From a virus (taxonomy: Duplodnaviria > Caudoviricetes): 64,000 bases of DNA. Numbering within the stretch: the first letter of the stretch is position 1; every line of letters begins with the position of its first letter. The position numbers were made by a program, and so were the translations under genes. Positions 56,617 through 64,000 of the stretch are shown here, piece by piece. The stretch covers positions 2,181 through 66,180 of the IMG/VR virus record IMGVR_UViG_2913409695_000001, one strand, 5' to 3'. Under the pieces are notes generated by a model. The model was not told the DNA's origin, ran no database searches, and worked only from the letters and a program-made list of their open reading frames with translations.

Positions 56617-57018
56617 ATGGAACGACTTGATATCGTAATAAAAAGCGCAGTCGCTTTCGGTGGCTCGTTGGTAACGTACTTAACCGGAGGGTGGTCGGAA
56701 TCATTGTCGTTTTTACTATTTGTTATCGCGGTCGACGTCATATCGGGTGTATCGGCATCCGTTAAGGAAGGAAAAGGATTATCGAGCGCGGTAGGTTCGG
56801 CTGGACTCGCGAAGAAAGGACTTATGCTTCTCGTTATTTTACTCGCACACCGCATGGACGTTCTGCTCGGAACTGACATCGCAATGAGCGGCGCAGTCTA
56901 CTTTTATATCGCGAACGAACTTATCTCTATCGTAGAAAACTACGGAAGGATCGGATTGCCTTTGCCGGAAAAGATGCGCGACATTATCGCGGTACTTAAA
57001 AATAAAGGCGGTGAGTAA
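56617..57018 (+). CDS. holin (phage holin family 4-like)
   Basis: D.ISG; SS..G..GLAKK; YIANE.ISI.EN..R.GLP.P. Confidence 0.9.
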   Translation: MERLDIVIKSAVAFGGSLVTYLTGGWSESLSFLLFVIAVDVISGVSASVKEGKGLSSAVGSAGLAKKGLMLLVILLAHRMDVLLGTDIAMSGAVYFYIANELISIVENYGRIGLPLPEKMRDIIAVLKNKGGE

Positions 57019-57020
57019 CG

Positions 57021-57710
57021 ATGATAACGCTCGACCAAGTACGCGCTAAATCAGCAAGCAAGCTCGCCGGACTACATCCGGTAGTTTTATCGGCAACTCA
57101 ACGCTTAATCGAACGGACGTACGCGCGCGGCATTCCGATTGTTATTACGCAAGGTCTACGCACGATTGCGGAACAGGACGCACTATACGCGCAAGGCCGA
57201 ACGAAGCCAGGCGCGATTGTTACGAATGCGCGCGGTGGGGAGTCGTTCCATAACTTCGGAGTTGCGGTTGACTTCGCGTTACTGTTACCGGATGGTCGAA
57301 CGTTATCTTGGGATACGTTGCGCGACGGTAATCTCGACTTGTTGCCGGACTGGTCTGAAGTCGTTGACGAAGCCAAAGCGCTCGGATTTGCGTGGGGCGG
57401 CGACTGGCGTTCATTTAAAGACCTACCGCATTTCGAAATGACATTCGGATTGACGACCGCGCAATACAGAAGTGGAGCCATACCGGACAAAACGAAAGTT
57501 GACGCGGTGTTAGCGATACTGAATCCAGTGGAGGACGATGAAGACGTGAAACTCGATAACGCGAATGTAATCGTAAATGGAACGAAGGTAAAAGACGGAT
57601 TTCTTATGAACGGTTCTGTGTACGTTCCATTGCGTGACGTGGCGGATAGATTCGGCGCCACTATTGCGTGGGATAACGCGACTAAGACTGCGACAGTTAA
57701 GACGAAATGA
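57021..57710 (+). CDS. endolysin, M15 L-Ala-D-Glu peptidase with C-terminal copper-amine-oxidase-like domain
   Basis: GLRTIAEQDALYAQGRT; S.HNFG.AVD; WGGDW...D.PHFE; YVPLR.VA...GA.I.WD. Confidence 0.9.
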   Translation: MITLDQVRAKSASKLAGLHPVVLSATQRLIERTYARGIPIVITQGLRTIAEQDALYAQGRTKPGAIVTNARGGESFHNFGVAVDFALLLPDGRTLSWDTLRDGNLDLLPDWSEVVDEAKALGFAWGGDWRSFKDLPHFEMTFGLTTAQYRSGAIPDKTKVDAVLAILNPVEDDEDVKLDNANVIVNGTKVKDGFLMNGSVYVPLRDVADRFGATIAWDNATKTATVKTK

Positions 57711-57863: not shown

Positions 57864-58490
57864 ATGGATTCAGAGGAGATTGTATTAACAGAAAATGACG
57901 GGTCAACCGCGGTACAACCAAAACAACGCGTTAACGCACTTACGATTACAACAGCTGTTCTATCAATATTTGCTTTGTGTATCTCAGTTGCCGCTCTTGT
58001 AATCATCCTTACGTTACATAGCGAAATATCAGACCTAAAGAGTCAAAATACAGAATTAAGCGCAGTAAATAATCAACTTCAAAAAGATCAAACCGCATTA
58101 AACGATCAGCAAGAGAAATATAGATCATATTTATTACTTTCTTCCATACAGCATGATATTGAGGATGGTGTAGTAACTGATGATTTTGTCGCTAAAAAAG
58201 TATCGTTTGGATTCGGAAAAGAAGGTAATGATCTGACGCATGTTGTAATTGACCTCAGTAATCAACCTGATATGACGGTGGCCTACAGCGGTAAAGGTAT
58301 ATATTCTATCGCGGACAGAGAGCTAAGAGCTAAATGCAATAGCATAATAAAAGCAGTAAAAGATTATTACGTAAGTGAAGGGTCCGGTGCGCCAGTTTGG
58401 GACGATGATACAAAAGTATCTTTAACAGTTCAAAATTACGAAATTGGAAAAAGTGAAGCCGGAGACTTTAAATTAGTAGGTGAAAAATAA
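57864..58490 (+). CDS. AT-rich moron: single TM, coiled coil, extracellular domain
   Basis: TM ITTAVLSIFALCISVAALVIILTL; own SD and terminator. Confidence 0.7.
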   Translation: MDSEEIVLTENDGSTAVQPKQRVNALTITTAVLSIFALCISVAALVIILTLHSEISDLKSQNTELSAVNNQLQKDQTALNDQQEKYRSYLLLSSIQHDIEDGVVTDDFVAKKVSFGFGKEGNDLTHVVIDLSNQPDMTVAYSGKGIYSIADRELRAKCNSIIKAVKDYYVSEGSGAPVWDDDTKVSLTVQNYEIGKSEAGDFKLVGEK

Positions 58491-58595: not shown

Positions 58596-58787
58596 ATGGT
58601 GTTATTAATGAATCAAGAACCGAAAAAAGAGGAAGATGAGGATTTAAGTTATTGGGAAATGTTTACATCAAATAAAAACGTTGCTTCGGTAGTAGTCGGA
58701 ATCGTTGCAAGCATCTTAATTTTATTCGTACTATACGCGTTAGTGAACGGAATCGCGTTTAACGTCGAGATTACTCCGCAACAATAG
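58596..58787 (+). CDS. small membrane moron protein
   Basis: One TM; extended -10 TGGTATACT upstream; terminator at 58803-58840. Confidence 0.55.
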   Translation: MVLLMNQEPKKEEDEDLSYWEMFTSNKNVASVVVGIVASILILFVLYALVNGIAFNVEITPQQ

Positions 58788-58955: not shown

Positions 58956-59171
58956 TTACATTGGCCAAAAGTCGTTTTGACTGACGTTATCACCCGTTAA
59001 TTTCCTCGCCGCATCTATTAACCTCCTCATCGTTGTCCCACTCGGATAATACCCCGGATTACTACATACTCGCGTAAGTGTGTCGCGGCTTACCTTCGAT
59101 ATTTCACGTATCCTCTCTTGTTCTATCCCGTTCCTATCCAGATAACTCCCGAATTTACTTCGCTTTTTCAC
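58956..59171 (-). CDS. XRE-family HTH regulator
   Basis: RSKFGSYLDRNGIEQERIREISKVSRDTLTRVC...DFWPM. Confidence 0.8.
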   Translation of the reverse strand: MKKRSKFGSYLDRNGIEQERIREISKVSRDTLTRVCSNPGYYPSGTTMRRLIDAARKLTGDNVSQNDFWPM

Positions 59172-59336
59172 GCGTCCTCACTCCTTTTATACGAGTTTGG
59201 ACGAGTCTAGCAAAATTTATACGTATCTTTCGGCATTTTTGCGGAAAGTTACGCAAGCCCTCGCGCATAACATCAAACATACGTAAAACGTGACGCATTA
59301 TACGTTTTACCTACGTTATACGGGAGGTGATGCGAA

Positions 59337-60131
59337 GTGGGCGTTAGCCACATTGGATTAGACGTAGGACGAAACGGAGTCAAATCGTTTGATGGCGTCA
59401 GCACGCGGTTTATTCCGTCGGTTGTAGGCGAGTGGCGTGATCGGAGACTTCAATCGCGCAGCAACGACGATATCGAAGTGCTATTCCGCGGTGAGCGCAG
59501 TTTCGTCGGCAACTTGGCGCTAAATGAATCGGAGTTTTGGCGTTATATGATGACGGACGATAAAGCGCACGCAGATACACGGTTACTCGCGCTAGTAGCA
59601 ATACATCGCGCAGGATTAACGGACGACGTAGTGGTAACAACGGGCTTACCGGTTGAACTCCATACGCCAGAGGCAAAAGCGGCTATGCGTAATCTTTTAC
59701 TCGGGCGGTGGGAAATCGAAGTTAATGGCGATCCGCGCGTCATCCGCATACATGACGTTAAAGTTGCGGTAGAAGGCGGAGGGGCATTCTGGTCCGCGCC
59801 AGCCGACGGATTAATACGGGTTATCGACGCAGGAAGTAAAACGGTCAATTACGTAACGATGCGTAATAAGCGCTATGTCGACCGTGATTCCGGCACATTA
59901 CCATTCGGTTTCAATACGAATAAGACGGATAATCCGCGTCAAATGACCGCGCGCATCGCGGGAGAACTCGGCAAGAAATGGAGCGCGAGTGATGACGTGC
60001 GAATATGCGGAGGGCGTGCGGAAGAATTAGCGAAATTACTCCGCGATTACTTCGTTAATGCGCGCGCGATGGCAAATCCGCTATATGCGAATGCGATCGG
60101 ATTCTATCGCGTAGGGAGTGGGACGACGTGA
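59337..60131 (+). CDS. ParM/StbA-family actin-like ATPase
   Basis: Phosphate-1 GLDVGRNGVK; TGLP; VAVEG; phosphate-2 IDAGSKTVN; ICGG; NAIG. Confidence 0.85.
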   Translation: MGVSHIGLDVGRNGVKSFDGVSTRFIPSVVGEWRDRRLQSRSNDDIEVLFRGERSFVGNLALNESEFWRYMMTDDKAHADTRLLALVAIHRAGLTDDVVVTTGLPVELHTPEAKAAMRNLLLGRWEIEVNGDPRVIRIHDVKVAVEGGGAFWSAPADGLIRVIDAGSKTVNYVTMRNKRYVDRDSGTLPFGFNTNKTDNPRQMTARIAGELGKKWSASDDVRICGGRAEELAKLLRDYFVNARAMANPLYANAIGFYRVGSGTT

Positions 60132-60349
60132 ACAATTTCGTTAGGAAAGCGGTAAGTTTTAACGTAGATAACGCTCATCAACGTGAACTTTACGAATGGG
60201 TTACGTTACAGAGCGTCGGTAATTTTAGCGGATATGTGAAAACGGTTCTTTACGCAGCAATGACGGCGAAAATAAGCGGTGCGCCGATGGCTACGCATGT
60301 GATTGCGTCAGGTGACGACGATTCAGACGCGATGAACGATATTTTATAA
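60128..60349 (+). CDS. small ParR-like / ribbon-helix-helix protein
   Basis: KAVSFN beta strand then two helices (NFSGYVK); coupled to parM. Confidence 0.55.
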   Translation: MNNFVRKAVSFNVDNAHQRELYEWVTLQSVGNFSGYVKTVLYAAMTAKISGAPMATHVIASGDDDSDAMNDIL

Positions 60350-60406
60350 AAGATACGTAAGCGCGCCGATAGCTCCGCCGATAATTAGTCCGATAACAAA
60401 AGACAT
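60344..60406 (-). CDS. 20-aa hydrophobic peptide MSFVIGLIIGGAIGALTYLL
   Basis: AAAGGAG SD 9 nt upstream of ATG; one TM with GxxxG. Confidence 0.55.
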   Translation of the reverse strand: MSFVIGLIIGGAIGALTYLL

Positions 60407-60460
60407 TAAAATCAACTCCTTGTGCATTAGTTAAACTTATTATGTCCGACTTAGAGAGGA

Positions 60461-60814
60461 ATGATTCATATGAAAACAGTCACGCTTGAGTGGGGCGCAT
60501 TTATGGACGGTTCAATCGTTACGCGAGAAAACGCGAAGCATCTCGTTACCAAAACGGCGTCCGCAGTCCATCTCGCGTTAATCCCGAAAACTGCGCTAGC
60601 ATCCGCAGTAGCCGGTAGCCAAACGTGGTCGACCGTATTCAGCACGGTGCTCGGCATTGCCGACTGGCTCTGCGTTGGAATTATCGTTTACGCCGGTATA
60701 ACGTGGATGTTCGGTAATCGTACGAAGGCGATCGAGTTCTTGATGGGCGGTGGCATCGGCTATATCATCGTTCGCCATGCGGTTGATATTCGGAATTGGC
60801 TGCGAACTTTATAA
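60461..60814 (+). CDS. TrbC/VirB2 pilin-like membrane protein
   Basis: Signal-like leader ending ALA, then two hydrophobic helices (IIVYAGITWMFGN...GGGIGYII). Confidence 0.55.
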   Translation: MIHMKTVTLEWGAFMDGSIVTRENAKHLVTKTASAVHLALIPKTALASAVAGSQTWSTVFSTVLGIADWLCVGIIVYAGITWMFGNRTKAIEFLMGGGIGYIIVRHAVDIRNWLRTL

Positions 60815-60827
60815 AGGGGTGAGCGCG

Positions 60828-61103
60828 ATGATATTACGGATTAATGGCGCCGCGGTAACAGAGCCGGAGTTATGGAAAGGACCGTTAACGCGCGTAATAG
60901 AGAACGGAGCGTCGAATTTATTTTTTGGAAAATTGGCGGATTTATTCGCGAGTCTTAACGCATTCTCTCCGGAAATTATTACGCTTGGCGTCGTCACATG
61001 CGCGATTGGAATGATGGTAGGGCCGCTCGTTGGTAACGGAAAATGGCTCGGACGTTTGTTTATCACGTTTTGGTTCGGAATTATATGGCGCGTATTAACA
61101 TAG
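60828..61103 (+). CDS. small two-TM membrane protein
   Basis: PEIITLGVVTCAIGMM...LFITFWFGIIW. Confidence 0.65.
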   Translation: MILRINGAAVTEPELWKGPLTRVIENGASNLFFGKLADLFASLNAFSPEIITLGVVTCAIGMMVGPLVGNGKWLGRLFITFWFGIIWRVLT

Positions 61104-61119
61104 AGGGGCGGGTTGTTAT

Positions 61120-61260
61120 ATGGAATCGCGGAGGAACCGGATTGAGAAAAAGCGATTGAAACGCCAAGAACGCAATAAGAAACGGTTTAAAACAGCTAAG
61201 AAAGTAGTCGCCAAAACAGATAAATTAGCTTCAAAAATACTAAGCGGACTAAAGTGGTGA
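61120..61260 (+). CDS. 46-aa very basic protein
   Basis: MESRRNRIEKKRLKRQERNKKRFK...; in operon position. Confidence 0.45.
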   Translation: MESRRNRIEKKRLKRQERNKKRFKTAKKVVAKTDKLASKILSGLKW

Positions 61261-61265
61261 GTTAA

Positions 61266-63716
61266 ATGATCGTACGTGAACGCACGGAACACGCAGTCTT
61301 CCGCATCATTCCGCACCAGTCCGTCCTTAACTCGTCATCGCGCAATTTTCAGCGCGCCCTCTACGAACTGTTCTCCGCACGCACGAAGCCGCGGCGCGAG
61401 GGATACCGCATCATCACGCAGCCAGCGCCGGACTTTTGGTGGATTACGCAAATGACCGCGGACTCGATTACGTTTTACTGCGCAATGCCTGCGGAGTTTG
61501 CGGACGCGTTTCGTATCAAATTTAATAACCACGAGCAATGGCGTAAGTCGACGCTTGAGCTTGCGGACGATTACGAGTTTATCGCGGACAATAATAATAC
61601 GGAGCTATACGCGTTTAAATATCGCCGTCACGACATGTTCTCGCTTGATTTCCGCTATAACGAACAGAATACGCCGGTGCGCGATTTGCTCGGAGTGACG
61701 AACGAATTATCGGATGGCGACGCAATAGCATTATTCATCCGCATGGAAACGATAAGACGCGCTAAGTGGAAGAAACTCGCGGATTACGCGTGGGAAACGT
61801 GGGATAAAGGCGGAGTGCCGTACCGTCCTGGCTTTGATCCGTTGCGGTTACTGCGTAATATTGCGAACGGCATAACGTACGTATTTTACGAAGCTAAAAC
61901 GTTAGTGGAAGACGTACTCACCGGAATTGAGCGCACATTTTATCACGGCGGGTCTGAACGCAAACAATCCGATAAACCGACGCTTCCTAACGCGGACCGT
62001 GCGGAAATCCTCGTTAACGGCGACCTCTCTACGCAGACAAAAAACAAGCGCAATCTGCCCGTGTTCAAAACGTCGATACGTTGCGCCGTCACTTCGGCTG
62101 ACCCCGTTAAGCGCGAAATGCTTGCGCGGTCAGTCGCCGGCGCTTACGGTAACTTAGCGGGAGATAATCGGCTAGAACTCGTAAAGATTAACGTGAGGGC
62201 ACGCCAAGCTACGGAAGATTTACGAAACTGGAAGATACGTGAAATCGCGCCCAACGTAATGAGCGTCGATGAGGTCGGAAAGTTAACGCAGCTACCAACC
62301 GCCGACGTTCAAGCGGAGTTTGCGGACGTCCTCACGGCTAATCGGCGCGTTGAAATCGAGATACCGCGCGTATTCCTTGATGACCGCGGCATATTGGCGG
62401 GCGTGGCTTCGGATAGGGGAACGGAACATCCGATTTATATACCGACGAATCAACCGGATAAGTTATACACGGCGCGAGTAGTTAACGGGTCGCCGCGCAT
62501 GGGTAAGGATCAGCACGTTATCAATCTCGTCGTCGAGGCGAAGCGCAAGCGCGGTATCGGCGCGGTCATTCCGGACTTTATCGACGAACACAACCGCGAT
62601 AAAGCGGGCAATCAACGCGGCATGGCCGACGCAATTCGCGACCATCTATCGCCGGATGACATTATCGACATCAACTTAGCGGACACAGCCTACGCGCCAT
62701 ATCTCGGACTACAAACGATATTGCATAACGTCGCGGACAAACGGATAGCGGCCGATGTGATCGCGGAATATCTAACGGATTTTCTACTATCGGAAGGTGA
62801 CGAGGATAAGTTTCAGACGGCGGAATTTACGCGTGACGCGGCGAAGGTGTGTAGCGGGGATTTAACGGATATGAAGGCGATGTTTACTGACGCGGCATTC
62901 CGTAAGCGTAAGATAGCGGAGTTAGACGACGTATTCGATATGGACGTGTGGCGCGACTTCGATAGGATGAGCGAGGGGAAGCAGGGGCAAATATACGGTC
63001 CGGTCATGCGGCGCATCGGGCAGATTACGAGCAGCGAGTTTTTGAAGCCGATGTTTTGCCAAGCGCATAATCCGGCGATGGATCTATACGGATGGATTGC
63101 GGCAGGCAAAGTCGTAATCATACGTTGCAAAATGCCGGACGGTGTTCCGATGCCTGAGCGCATAAAACAGCTTCTCGGTTATTGGATCGTAATGCTCGCG
63201 TTTCTAATTAAGCTCGCGCAAGGCGGTTCCGGCGCCGGCACATTTCTCGTACTCAACGAGCCTCACCAGTTTATGTCGCGCGGCCTCGTTCATTTTACGA
63301 AACGGATGTTGCGCGAAGGTCCGAAGTATAAATGCGCGCCGATCATCGTATTTCACGACTTTAGCGCATTCCGCGAGTATTCCGGCTTTGTCGATACGTT
63401 ACTGTCCGCGTCCGTTAACTGGCACATATTCCGCAACACGCACGTTGATACCTACGTGAAATTGATGCCGTATTTATCGCGTACATTTGCCGACGCGCAG
63501 ATGGCATTCGAGGCGACGCGCCAATACCAGTTTATCGCGTGTTGGTTAGCGCAAGGCGAGTACGAAGCGCCGTTCGTATGTGACGCGCTAGAGCCGGTAG
63601 GTAAGCGGTATGAGAGCGCCGATAATTCGAAGCTGACGCGGGAACATGCGCGCAAATATGGGCGGCCGATTGCGGACGTGTTGGCGGAGATAAAAAGGCG
63701 TGTACCACAACGATAA
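61266..63716 (+). CDS. VirB4/TrwB/HerA-FtsK superfamily ATPase-like protein
   Basis: Walker A-like GSPRMGKD; Walker B-like LVLNEPHQ; REGPKY. Confidence 0.7.
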   Translation: MIVRERTEHAVFRIIPHQSVLNSSSRNFQRALYELFSARTKPRREGYRIITQPAPDFWWITQMTADSITFYCAMPAEFADAFRIKFNNHEQWRKSTLELADDYEFIADNNNTELYAFKYRRHDMFSLDFRYNEQNTPVRDLLGVTNELSDGDAIALFIRMETIRRAKWKKLADYAWETWDKGGVPYRPGFDPLRLLRNIANGITYVFYEAKTLVEDVLTGIERTFYHGGSERKQSDKPTLPNADRAEILVNGDLSTQTKNKRNLPVFKTSIRCAVTSADPVKREMLARSVAGAYGNLAGDNRLELVKINVRARQATEDLRNWKIREIAPNVMSVDEVGKLTQLPTADVQAEFADVLTANRRVEIEIPRVFLDDRGILAGVASDRGTEHPIYIPTNQPDKLYTARVVNGSPRMGKDQHVINLVVEAKRKRGIGAVIPDFIDEHNRDKAGNQRGMADAIRDHLSPDDIIDINLADTAYAPYLGLQTILHNVADKRIAADVIAEYLTDFLLSEGDEDKFQTAEFTRDAAKVCSGDLTDMKAMFTDAAFRKRKIAELDDVFDMDVWRDFDRMSEGKQGQIYGPVMRRIGQITSSEFLKPMFCQAHNPAMDLYGWIAAGKVVIIRCKMPDGVPMPERIKQLLGYWIVMLAFLIKLAQGGSGAGTFLVLNEPHQFMSRGLVHFTKRMLREGPKYKCAPIIVFHDFSAFREYSGFVDTLLSASVNWHIFRNTHVDTYVKLMPYLSRTFADAQMAFEATRQYQFIACWLAQGEYEAPFVCDALEPVGKRYESADNSKLTREHARKYGRPIADVLAEIKRRVPQR

Positions 63717-63780: not shown

Positions 63781-63809
63781 TTGACTTAACGTTGTCCGCG
63801 TGTTATTAT
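63781..63809 (+). promoter_or_regulatory. sigma-A promoter upstream of the tRNA
   Basis: TTGACT-17-TATTAT with extended TG. Confidence 0.65.
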
Positions 63810-63961
63810 AACTTCCGTCGGTAGCGAGGTACGCACGACTAAAATATTGCGCGGTTAAACGGTTGCCTACCGTTAGCCTACCGCATAGCCTAACGGAAAC
63901 GGTAATGCGCGATGTAACGAATAAAACGCGGAGCAAAATCGCGAAAACCCGCGTCATACTT

Positions 63962-64000
63962 GCGGTCGTGGCGGAATTGGCAGACGCGCACGGTTCAGGT
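63962..64000 (+). tRNA. tRNA-Leu(CAG), 5' part, cut by window end
   Basis: GCGGTCGTGGCGGAATTGGCAGACGCG CACGG TT-CAG-GT; leucine D-arm and anticodon loop. Confidence 0.85.

Follow-up and report, generated by a model that had tools for sequence, protein, structure and literature searches.

Why does a temperate phage carry what look like parts of a conjugation machine at the end of its genome, between its lysis genes and the host tRNA gene into which it has integrated? The question is raised by a 64,000-nucleotide stretch of phage DNA (hereafter, the window; positions 2181 to 66180 of the 66,180-bp contig C11, IMG/VR record IMGVR_UViG_2913409695_000001). On its plus strand, 3′ of the lysis genes, the window encodes an actin-like ATPase, a small ribbon-helix-helix (RHH)-like protein, a pilin-like protein, a protein with two transmembrane (TM) segments, and an 816-amino-acid (aa) ATPase (Table 1). 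All of the genes named in the original prediction, a reading of this DNA made from its letters, were found on that strand and, as stated there, at the phage end after the holin and endolysin genes. Their identification as a type IV secretion system (T4SS)-derived VirB2/VirB4 cassette joined to a ParM/ParR-like pair is secure. What the cassette does can be answered more tentatively. The reading that we favor, as a possibility that falls short of being probable, is that it is a self-contained accessory unit of this temperate phage, one in which proteins derived from a T4SS/conjugation core and a ParM/ParR-type pair handle the phage genome in a sporulating host. That its role in phage DNA handling is linked to sporulation is plausible.

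Table 1 Features of the cassette and its surroundings (positions are those of the window)
Feature	Position	Strand	Remarks
Holin	56617-57018		PF05105
Endolysin	57021-57710		Peptidase_M15_4
71-aa helix-turn-helix (HTH)-like regulator	58956..59171	-	Divergent from cassette; HTH from sequence pattern only
Control region	59172..59336	.	Inverted repeat 59276-59291 / 59302-59317 (repeats I4, I7) and two conserved blocks
AlfA/ParM-like actin, 264 aa	59337..60131	+	PF17989 ALP_N, E 1e-25; phrog_691 "partition protein"
73-aa RHH-like DNA-binding protein (predicted), SPP1 gp31 homolog	60128..60349	+	Overlaps ParM stop (GTGA)
20-aa glycine-zipper membrane peptide gene	60344..60406	-	Antisense, between RHH and pilin-like genes
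Forespore (sigma-G/F)-type promoter-like element	60438..60467	-	GAATC-N18-CATAATA; for peptide gene
VirB2/TrbC-like pilin, 114 aa, SPP1 gp31.1 homolog	60470..60814	+	Alternative start 60461
91-aa 2-TM protein, SPP1 gp31.2 counterpart	60828..61103	+	Weak match to gp31.2, E 5e-5
46-aa very basic open reading frame (ORF), doubtful gene	61120..61260	+	19 K+R; not in frame with ATPase
816-aa VirB4-type ATPase, SPP1 gp32/SPO1 gp27.4 homolog	61266..63716	+	phrog_5156, E 1e-160
Sigma-70-like promoter	63781..63809	+	TTGACT-17-TATTAT with TG; 10/12 matches; between ATPase stop and tRNA
attR core, 44 bp	63956..63999	+	Spans 5′ part of tRNA-Leu(CAG); tRNA start 63963

The genes behave as one unit. We fetched 9 genome, 16 IMG/VR, 25 metagenome, and 7 phage or plasmid records containing related loci and scanned all of their ORFs with the window proteins. 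The RHH, pilin-like, 2-TM (or M23), and ATPase genes were syntenic in 49 of the 52 related loci with an upstream flank, and in the same proportion of loci (49/52) the pilin-like gene immediately preceded the ATPase gene, in most cases with the 2-TM gene intervening. An actin-like gene was linked to this module in 17 of the fetched loci. The view that the genes form a co-conserved module was therefore borne out, whereas the claim that the system was undescribed has to be withdrawn because the module had been reported in SPP1 (PMC6316719) and in 0305phi8-36 and SPO1 (PMC3357382). By sequence comparison, its orthology to the SPP1 genes 31, 31.1, 31.2, and 32 is secure, and it is related to the "DNA translocation operon" of 0305phi8-36/SPO1. 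Both of these earlier descriptions were bioinformatic and came without a function (PMC6316719, PMC3357382).

Sequence searches with the large ATPase were almost empty. No match was found in Pfam, NCBIfam, or the PDB sequences (E values up to 0.1 to 1), the curated VirB4 models (Pfam CagE_TrbE_VirB, AAA_10, and the like) left it unmatched, and the only family that it joined, phrog_5156, has no function attached. Therefore, a fold search was needed. The full-length AlphaFold2 model (predicted local distance difference test [pLDDT] score of 88) matched TrwK/VirB4 over the whole length in Foldseek (E 1e-14). The C-terminal domain aligned well with VirB4 4ag5 (Z 25.7, root mean square deviation [rmsd] 3.9, 341 aa) but was tied among VirB4, TrwB, DndH-C, and HerA, so that the family cannot be read from this domain by itself. 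A separate model of the N-terminal 366 residues, also at a pLDDT of 88, was more discriminating: VirB4 proteins took the first 13 places in Foldseek, with a fall to unrelated folds thereafter, and in an exhaustive structural search TrwK/VirB4 7o42_A scored Z 16.6 (rmsd 3.4, 248 aa) compared to Z 9.4 for the next match. The models point to a two-domain VirB4-type motor whose family is decided by the N-terminal domain, and the suggestion that the protein resembles VirB4, TrwB, or HerA can now be narrowed to a VirB4 fold in both domains.

The predicted motor also appears to be catalytically intact. Canonical VirB4 proteins have a Walker A motif of the form GxxGxGK[ST] and a Walker B motif of the form hhhhDE. 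The corresponding motifs of the window protein, the P-loop GSPRMGKD and the Walker B LVLNE, were invariant in 33 homologs (G413, K414, and D415; N664 and E665). The combination of GKD with NE was present in the window, SPP1, GBK2, MMB025, Basilisk, and a Bacillus cereus plasmid, and that of GKT or GKS with DE in SPO1 gp27.4 and a Clostridium botulinum plasmid. The carboxylate thus moves between Walker A and Walker B, one change compensating the other, which argues for a working active site, one that is intact but charge-swapped. This co-variation is a new observation. It bears on the least credible of the explanations considered, that the cassette is a decaying remnant of a captured conjugative element and has no present function. 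The gene set is indeed incomplete for a T4SS, and an M23 domain has been lost from the 2-TM gene of the window (see below). However, the ORFs are intact and full length across identities of 23% to 80%, the aligned ATPases share 58 invariant columns, the changes at catalytic residues are compensated, the family comprises 217 clusters at E < 1e-30 (among 1.84 billion representatives), and the gene order is kept in virulent phages with compact genomes. Decay is already contradicted by this pattern of sequence conservation, and we regard it as extremely improbable.

The proteins encoded just upstream fit the same assignment. The pilin-like protein scored 29.9 bits against PF04956 (TrbC/VirB2; gathering cut-off, 27.9), a label that is precomputed on most of its close homologs, and was 43% identical to SPP1 gp31.1 (E 4e-22). 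Alignment A2 showed a conserved leader ending in ..P-x4-A, helix 1, a basic loop (GNRTKA), and helix 2, both helices being hydrophobic; by hydropathy (19-aa window, Kyte-Doolittle value of ≥1.6) only helix 1 was detected, at residues 54 to 81, and the leader and helix 2 come from the alignment only. A search of the PDB with the pilin-like profile gave a sole match, to Agrobacterium tumefaciens VirB2 8exh, and a weak one (E 1.4). The Pfam score and the leader with its two-helix pattern uphold the naming of this gene product as a VirB2/TrbC-like pilin. In some RefSeq/UniRef records (L019, Collibacillus) the pilin-like gene is called "glycosyltransferase," and in some records the ATPase is called "lipid A export ATP-binding/permease MsbA" or "VFDB virulence factor"; such labels are probably misannotations that hide the module.

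The 2-TM protein, which was found where it had been reported, has longer relatives. Its homologs in three loci (L009, L011, and L015) are 221 to 244 aa long and combine an N-terminal PF01551 (M23) domain with the same C-terminal hairpin, and in the Alicyclobacillus phage MMB025 an M23 gene occupies the 2-TM position. The window protein retains the sequence MILRING and the hairpin only. It appears, from this comparison, to be the anchor left from an M23 wall hydrolase, which is also a new observation. Gram-positive conjugation systems have a membrane-anchored wall hydrolase in place of VirB1. The basic peptide named in the original prediction exists as an ORF but is doubtful as a gene, with no homolog in any related locus; basic N-terminal extensions are found on some of the homologous ATPases.

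At the other end of the cassette, the actin-like protein is closest among solved chains to AlfA 6f95 (E 9e-5), followed by Clostridium ParMs, and the residues of its nucleotide-binding motifs (D9, G11, D164, and G166) were invariant in 26 homologs. The module had been taken to start at 59254; the ParM-like gene is real, but it starts at 59337, and 59254 lies within the upstream control region. The 17 loci with a linked actin-like gene include those of SPO1 (gp27.9) and Basilisk (gp106), and the gene is almost always directly upstream of the RHH gene. SPO1 gp27.9 has three Pfam actin domains and lies ∼2 kb upstream of the ATPase gene, and Basilisk gp106 lies downstream of it. In at least 16 cases, the longest contig listed had the same size for the ParM match and for the ATPase match. 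In MMB025, the closest relative among cultured phages, the actin-like gene is in two frames, split at about residue 123 (L002:2779-3553), and is annotated as two "partition protein" genes, the result of a frameshift or a sequencing error.

The RHH-like protein connects the actin-like gene to the rest of the cassette. Its N-terminal 48 residues aligned with the first-gene products of the cassettes in 19 other loci, SPP1 gp31 and GBK2_29 among them, and a strand-helix-helix pattern could be read from this alignment (A6). The nearest named atlas clusters were Plasmid_stab_B and TacA (0.82 to 0.83), which serve as leads only. The protein ends in ..DSDAMNDIL in the window, and a short, hydrophobic, and usually acidic C-terminal tail of this kind was present in 10 of the 10 RHH proteins linked to ParM (for example, ..DAMNDIL, ..EAMVSLL, and ..DFSPDGFI) compared to 0 of the 13 from cassettes that lack ParM. 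ParR-type adaptors bind their filament via such a C-terminal tail. Because the ParR-like tail occurs only where ParM is present, the label "adaptor" given to this protein is probably right for the window phage. The RHH genes are nevertheless orthologous in the two kinds of cassette and come first in both, so that the protein is best described as a putative ParR-like adaptor here and, at the same time, as the conserved first gene product of a VirB4-like cassette. The correlation between tail and ParM is a new observation.

These data help to judge whether two independent neighbors have been mistaken for one system, that is, whether ParM and the RHH protein are a partition pair and the pilin-like protein, 2-TM protein, and ATPase are a pilus, adhesion, or secretion machine with no DNA role. 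ParM is absent from about two thirds of the cassettes, and in 14 Paenibacillus-type loci (including L007:7704-7997 and L008:7717-8022) a conserved but unrelated ORF of ∼100 aa stands in its place ahead of the RHH gene. The product of this ORF (MSKxLLKxMAGEVS..) has a basic tail and had no match in Pfam or NCBIfam. Many carriers, moreover, are phage-plasmids of B. cereus and C. botulinum, for which partition is needed. Set against this, the RHH gene is kept as the first cassette gene even where ParM is missing, and ParM is linked to the cassette both in an integrating prophage, that of the window, and in SPO1, where partition is unneeded. Since the window phage integrates and SPO1 is strictly virulent, partition of a plasmid prophage cannot explain the actin gene. 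The idea of two unconnected neighbors is therefore one that we consider rather improbable.

We next consider the hosts in which the cassette is found. That of the window phage appears to be a Paenibacillaceae-like endospore former, as judged from the best ATPase matches (Paenibacillus and Cohnella) and from five small acid-soluble spore protein (SASP) genes in its genome. Three divergent ATPases were used as tblastn queries, those of the window, the C. botulinum plasmid, and SPO1 (gp27.4), and they matched 112, 91, and 146 phage records, respectively. The hosts of these phages were Bacillus, Geobacillus, Lysinibacillus, Alicyclobacillus, Brevibacillus, Clostridium, and Terrisporobacter, with one Microcystis record, the only ATPase match outside endospore-forming hosts. 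The 50 plasmid matches were from Bacillus (22), Clostridium (27), and Alicyclobacillus (1), and 42 of the 50 plasmids were nonmobilizable. This distribution, which amounts to about 150 phages and 50 plasmids with an ATPase homolog, is likewise a new observation. As a control we searched with the prophage's own holin, which matched 413 phage records, led by those of Streptococcus (120) and Staphylococcus (104). Because the holin finds many phages of nonsporulating Bacillota, the absence of the ATPase there is real at this sensitivity. Comparison of spore formers with non-spore formers, which had been suggested as a check, thus showed an ATPase confined, but for the Microcystis record, to endospore-forming hosts and a holin that is not. 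Per genome the ATPase is rare, with 2 occurrences in 400 genomes sampled from the phylum.

A second link to sporulation lies within the cassette, between the RHH and pilin-like genes, where a short gene runs antisense to them, convergent with the RHH gene and overlapping it at the 3′ end. Type I toxin-antitoxin systems, in which the gene for a small hydrophobic peptide is overlapped by an antisense transcript, offer a comparison for this layout. An ORF of 17 to 26 aa with a ribosome-binding site was present at the same place and in the same orientation in 32 of 45 loci, including those of SPP1, GBK2, and the B. cereus plasmid. The consensus of the encoded peptides, MxFxIGLIxGGxIG, contains a conserved GxxxG in which G10 never varies and G14 hardly does; searches of Pfam and NCBIfam yielded no family, only weak glycine-zipper matches. 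The SPP1 copy is an unannotated hydrophobic 17-aa ORF, MHFFISLLIGYIVGVLV (L001:4068-4121, minus strand), between genes 31 and 31.1, with the ribosome-binding site AAAGGAGGG, and it is homologous to the window peptide in position and sequence. It falls in a noncoding gap remarked on in the 2018 re-annotation (PMC6316719).

Upstream of the antisense peptide gene, the loci share an element of the form G[TA]AT[AC]-N17/18-CATA[CA]TA. When it was scored against the sigma-G consensus (GHATR-N17/18-CATnHTA, 11 positions), the window element matched at 10 of the 11 positions, and 15 of 27 distinct loci had a match of at least 10/11 compared to 1.5 to 2% of shuffled or random 75-mers. SASP (ssp) genes are the classic sigma-G targets, and the five of this host, used as a positive control, all scored 10 to 11 with the same motif at the same distance from the start codon (for example, GCATA-N17-CATACTA). 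Across loci, the distance between the minus-strand −35 and −10 is maintained, whereas that between the −35 and the start codon of the pilin gene varies, so translation signals on the opposite strand do not explain the conservation. As a separate candidate, the conserved TAnTATG block was considered as a plus-strand sigma-A −10 for the pilin operon and was rejected, there being no −35 at 16 to 18 nucleotides. The element is promoter-like, and its sequence suggests a conserved promoter of the forespore (sigma-G/F) type inside the cassette. The conservation of an antisense membrane peptide with an ssp-like promoter motif is a new observation.

The link to sporulation therefore comes from two independent observations, the host range and the conserved forespore-type promoter, and a role in positioning or translocating DNA fits with both and with a ParR-like tail that occurs only with ParM. 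In the reading that we tentatively favor, a soluble VirB4-like hexamer would dock on the membrane proteins and power the assembly of a conduit or polymer, based on pilin, across a wall that is locally opened by the M23 partner. The RHH protein would mark phage DNA, and the actin-like filament would move the DNA so marked, the purpose being that a copy of the phage genome ends up in the spore of a sporulating host and stays quiet there. The forespore-expressed peptide and the antisense transcript would form a compartment-specific switch. A more elaborate version, which we think unlikely as a whole, is a two-compartment, sporulation-coupled device with which virulent and temperate phages place and keep their genomes in the spore. 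In the mother or predivisional cell, the RHH protein would mark the phage DNA and the actin-like filament would push it poleward, and the machine made of VirB4-like protein, pilin-like protein, and wall hydrolase would act at the membranes of the septum or of engulfment. Inside the forespore, the antisense promoter would then be fired by sigma-F/G RNA polymerase, leading to synthesis of the glycine-zipper peptide and silencing of the cassette.

Several points weigh against the reading that we favor. First, the host restriction could reflect the boundaries of gene pools and not sporulation. Second, a forespore promoter needs phage DNA that is already in the forespore, which argues for a role after entry and not for the entry step; going by its sequence, the promoter would favor silencing or maintenance in the forespore over entry. 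The SPP1 copy of the motif is also weak (8/11), and Spo0A boxes (TGTCGAA) are fewer in the window than expected (4 compared to 12.8), with none in the cassette. Third, profile and structure searches gave no support for the RHH fold: the protein had no match in Pfam, and its profile found nothing relevant in the PDB, only a nanobody at E 0.96. Fourth, the 2-TM protein has almost no cytoplasmic part, which sits poorly with a soluble ATPase that would dock on the membrane proteins. Finally, no VirB6, VirB8, VirD4, or relaxase domain was found in the cassette ORFs in a Pfam scan, and tblastn with SPO1 gp27.3, a MobC-like relaxase, gave no match when run against the prophage contig, the genome, and the related loci. 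This agrees with what had been noted at the outset, that no relaxase or other T4SS core gene lies between the cassette and the tRNA, and it means that the pathway of a DNA substrate is not evident.

The missing parts matter as well to the idea that the cassette serves a virion-free, conjugation-like transfer of DNA or protein between vegetative cells in chains or biofilms. VirB2-like and VirB4-like parts together with a wall hydrolase are what one finds in conjugation. VirC1/VirC2 or the ParM/ParR pair of R1 deliver DNA to a conjugation machine, and the RHH and ParM-like proteins could feed DNA to this one. Such transfer has been proposed as "propagation by translocation," and a MobC-like relaxase accompanies the cassette versions of SPO1 and 0305phi8-36 (PMC3357382). 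However, no relaxase turned up in the window prophage or the other SPP1-type loci with gp27.3 as the query, by the domain scan the cassette has neither a coupling protein nor a VirB6-like channel, and nonsporulating Bacillota also conjugate and form chains and yet, by the holin control, do not have the cassette. Vegetative transfer is accordingly an explanation to which we give little credence, and handling of the phage genome in a sporulating host is still the reading that we prefer.

The genomic setting of the cassette raises one more alternative. Contig C11 is a whole prophage integrated in tRNA-Leu. An identical 44-bp sequence stands at the start (attL) and at the end (attR) of the contig; contig C7 leads into the start, and the end continues into C10, where tRNA-Leu(CAG) is completed. 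The integration point is the anticodon loop, and the 5′ half of the tRNA gene is duplicated as the 44-bp core. A tyrosine integrase is encoded near the other end (C11:237-1217). ARAGORN found no tRNA inside the window, whose end falls within tRNA-Leu(CAG) from position 63963, the remainder being on the adjoining contig. The sigma-70-like promoter downstream of the ATPase gene is located 154 nucleotides upstream of tRNA-Leu, so that the tRNA-Leu at attR has its 5′ half and a strong sigma-70-like promoter both of phage origin, and the original tRNA-Leu promoter now faces attL and the integrase.

In the prophage contigs of relatives, too, the ATPase gene is usually the final gene of the contig, as it is here. 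Last genes before attR with a divergent regulator of their own are in the classic position of a moron, and this is consistent with superinfection exclusion or the blocking of competitors, in which the membrane proteins and the ATPase, placed in the envelope of the lysogen or of a newly infected cell, would stop or expel incoming phage or conjugative DNA. The SPP1 version is early and nonessential (PMC6316719), and ATPases of the HerA, VirB4, and FtsK types are known in defense systems, as the fold matches show. No PADLOC model matched any cassette protein, however, which leaves a known defense system unsupported, and exclusion leaves unexplained the recurrent link to actin with the ParR-like tail, the forespore-type promoter, and the restriction to sporulating hosts. 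We judge exclusion to be quite doubtful and keep to the handling of phage DNA in a sporulating host as the better account.

The divergent regulator was overlooked in the original prediction, which also leaves out the antisense peptide gene, a feature noted separately. Homologs of this 71-aa HTH-like protein, which had no Pfam match, are encoded in the same divergent position in 16 related loci (L007-L010, L012, L013, L021, L022, L024-L026, L028, and L036-L039), and on the B. cereus-group plasmid L019 the homolog adjoins the ATPase gene. Between the regulator and the actin-like gene, the control region contains two blocks, TTTGGACGAGTCTA..CAAAAT and CATAACATCAAACATACGTAAAACGT, which L007, L008, L010, L028, and L037 also have ahead of their first cassette gene. 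These blocks match neither sigma-70 nor the phage sigma motif of 7211 and 21602. The phage sigma-factor motif ATGTCCCAA..GTCCGTATA, present elsewhere in the window, was tried as the cassette promoter and is absent upstream of the cassette. Upstream of parM, no parC-like iterons were found, only inverted repeats. By its sequence features, the region is a candidate promoter, operator, or centromere.

Further upstream of the cassette are baseplate, tail fiber, holin, and endolysin genes. Two membrane proteins are encoded between the endolysin gene and the cassette: one of 208 aa (57864-58490), with an N-terminal TM segment, a coiled coil, and weak Rz-like spanin and SLATT-like matches, and one of 63 aa (58596-58787), with a single TM segment. 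Both may be accessories of lysis, or morons in their own right.

How lytic phage genomes enter spores and persist there is an old question that has been revived for SPO1 and SPP1, and SPO1 forms virospores, with its ParM, gp27.9, suggested as an aid to entrapment (Magalie et al. 2026; PMC12991052). A two-compartment device, if real, would be the first viral machinery dedicated to forming virospores. About 150 sequenced phages carry the cassette, SPP1, SPO1, SP-10, CP-51, phage G, and 0305phi8-36 among them, and so do phage-plasmids of B. cereus and C. botulinum; the host restriction, the ParM/ParR-like pair, and the forespore-type promoter make it a concrete candidate for Bacillus subtilis genetics. 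If the link to sporulation fails, the cassette would still be the most reduced VirB2/VirB4 system known, one that shows what this pair does alone.

Among known systems, ParMRC and AlfA/AlfB resemble the first two genes of the cassette, an actin-like ATPase (nearest to AlfA) followed by a small putative DNA-binding protein with a ParR-like tail. Unlike in those systems, the putative adaptor of the window is the first gene of a VirB4-like cassette, no iteron array was found, and the carrier integrates into the chromosome. The remaining genes follow the order of the VirB2-VirB3-VirB4 core (R388 TrwL/TrwM/TrwK and A. tumefaciens VirB), which is pilin, small membrane protein, and ATPase; TrwK shares both domains with the window ATPase, and the pilin-like protein matches Pfam TrbC. 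However, the small membrane protein of the window appears to be an M23 hydrolase anchor and not VirB3, and the cassette is phage-borne and without VirB6, VirB8, VirB10, VirD4, and a relaxase. Reduced sets of this kind exist in cells: the archaeal Ced DNA import system, which is minimal and relaxase-free, consists of the VirB2-like CedA1, CedA, and the VirB4/HerA-like CedB. Ced has a polytopic channel protein that was not seen in the cassette; by analogy only, both combine a VirB2-like subunit and small membrane proteins with one ATPase of the VirB4/HerA class.

The closest comparisons are with other phages. Pathria et al. (2012) described the operon of 0305phi8-36 (orf200-207) and SPO1 (gp27.3-27.9), and proposed cell-to-cell DNA translocation; the operon encodes a VirB6-like and an actin-like protein along with a relaxase and an ATPase of this family, and its deletion from 0305phi8-36 gave no laboratory phenotype (PMC3357382). 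SPO1 gp27.4 is 23% identical to the window ATPase over the full length, and both are linked to an actin-like protein. In contrast to the window prophage, where a relaxase was not found, that operon has a MobC-like relaxase (orf200/gp27.3) next to the ATPase and the VirB6-like protein, and the SPO1 ATPase has the canonical GKT and DE in place of GKD and NE. SPP1 is nearer still. Godinho et al. (2018) described 31.1 and 31.2 as membrane proteins, found the C terminus of gp32 to resemble TrwB, VirB4, and FtsK, and noted that 31.2 and 32 are nonessential, that the genes belong to the early PE5 unit, and that they may form a transmembrane translocon (PMC6316719). The window has homologs of all four proteins, gp31, gp31.1, gp31.2, and gp32, in the same order, and its ATPase is 30% identical to gp32 over the full length. 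SPP1 is without an actin-like gene at this locus, whereas the window has an added actin-like gene and a ParR-like tail on its RHH protein, and its cassette, unlike that of SPP1, belongs to an integrated prophage, where it comes last before attR and has a divergent regulator of its own.

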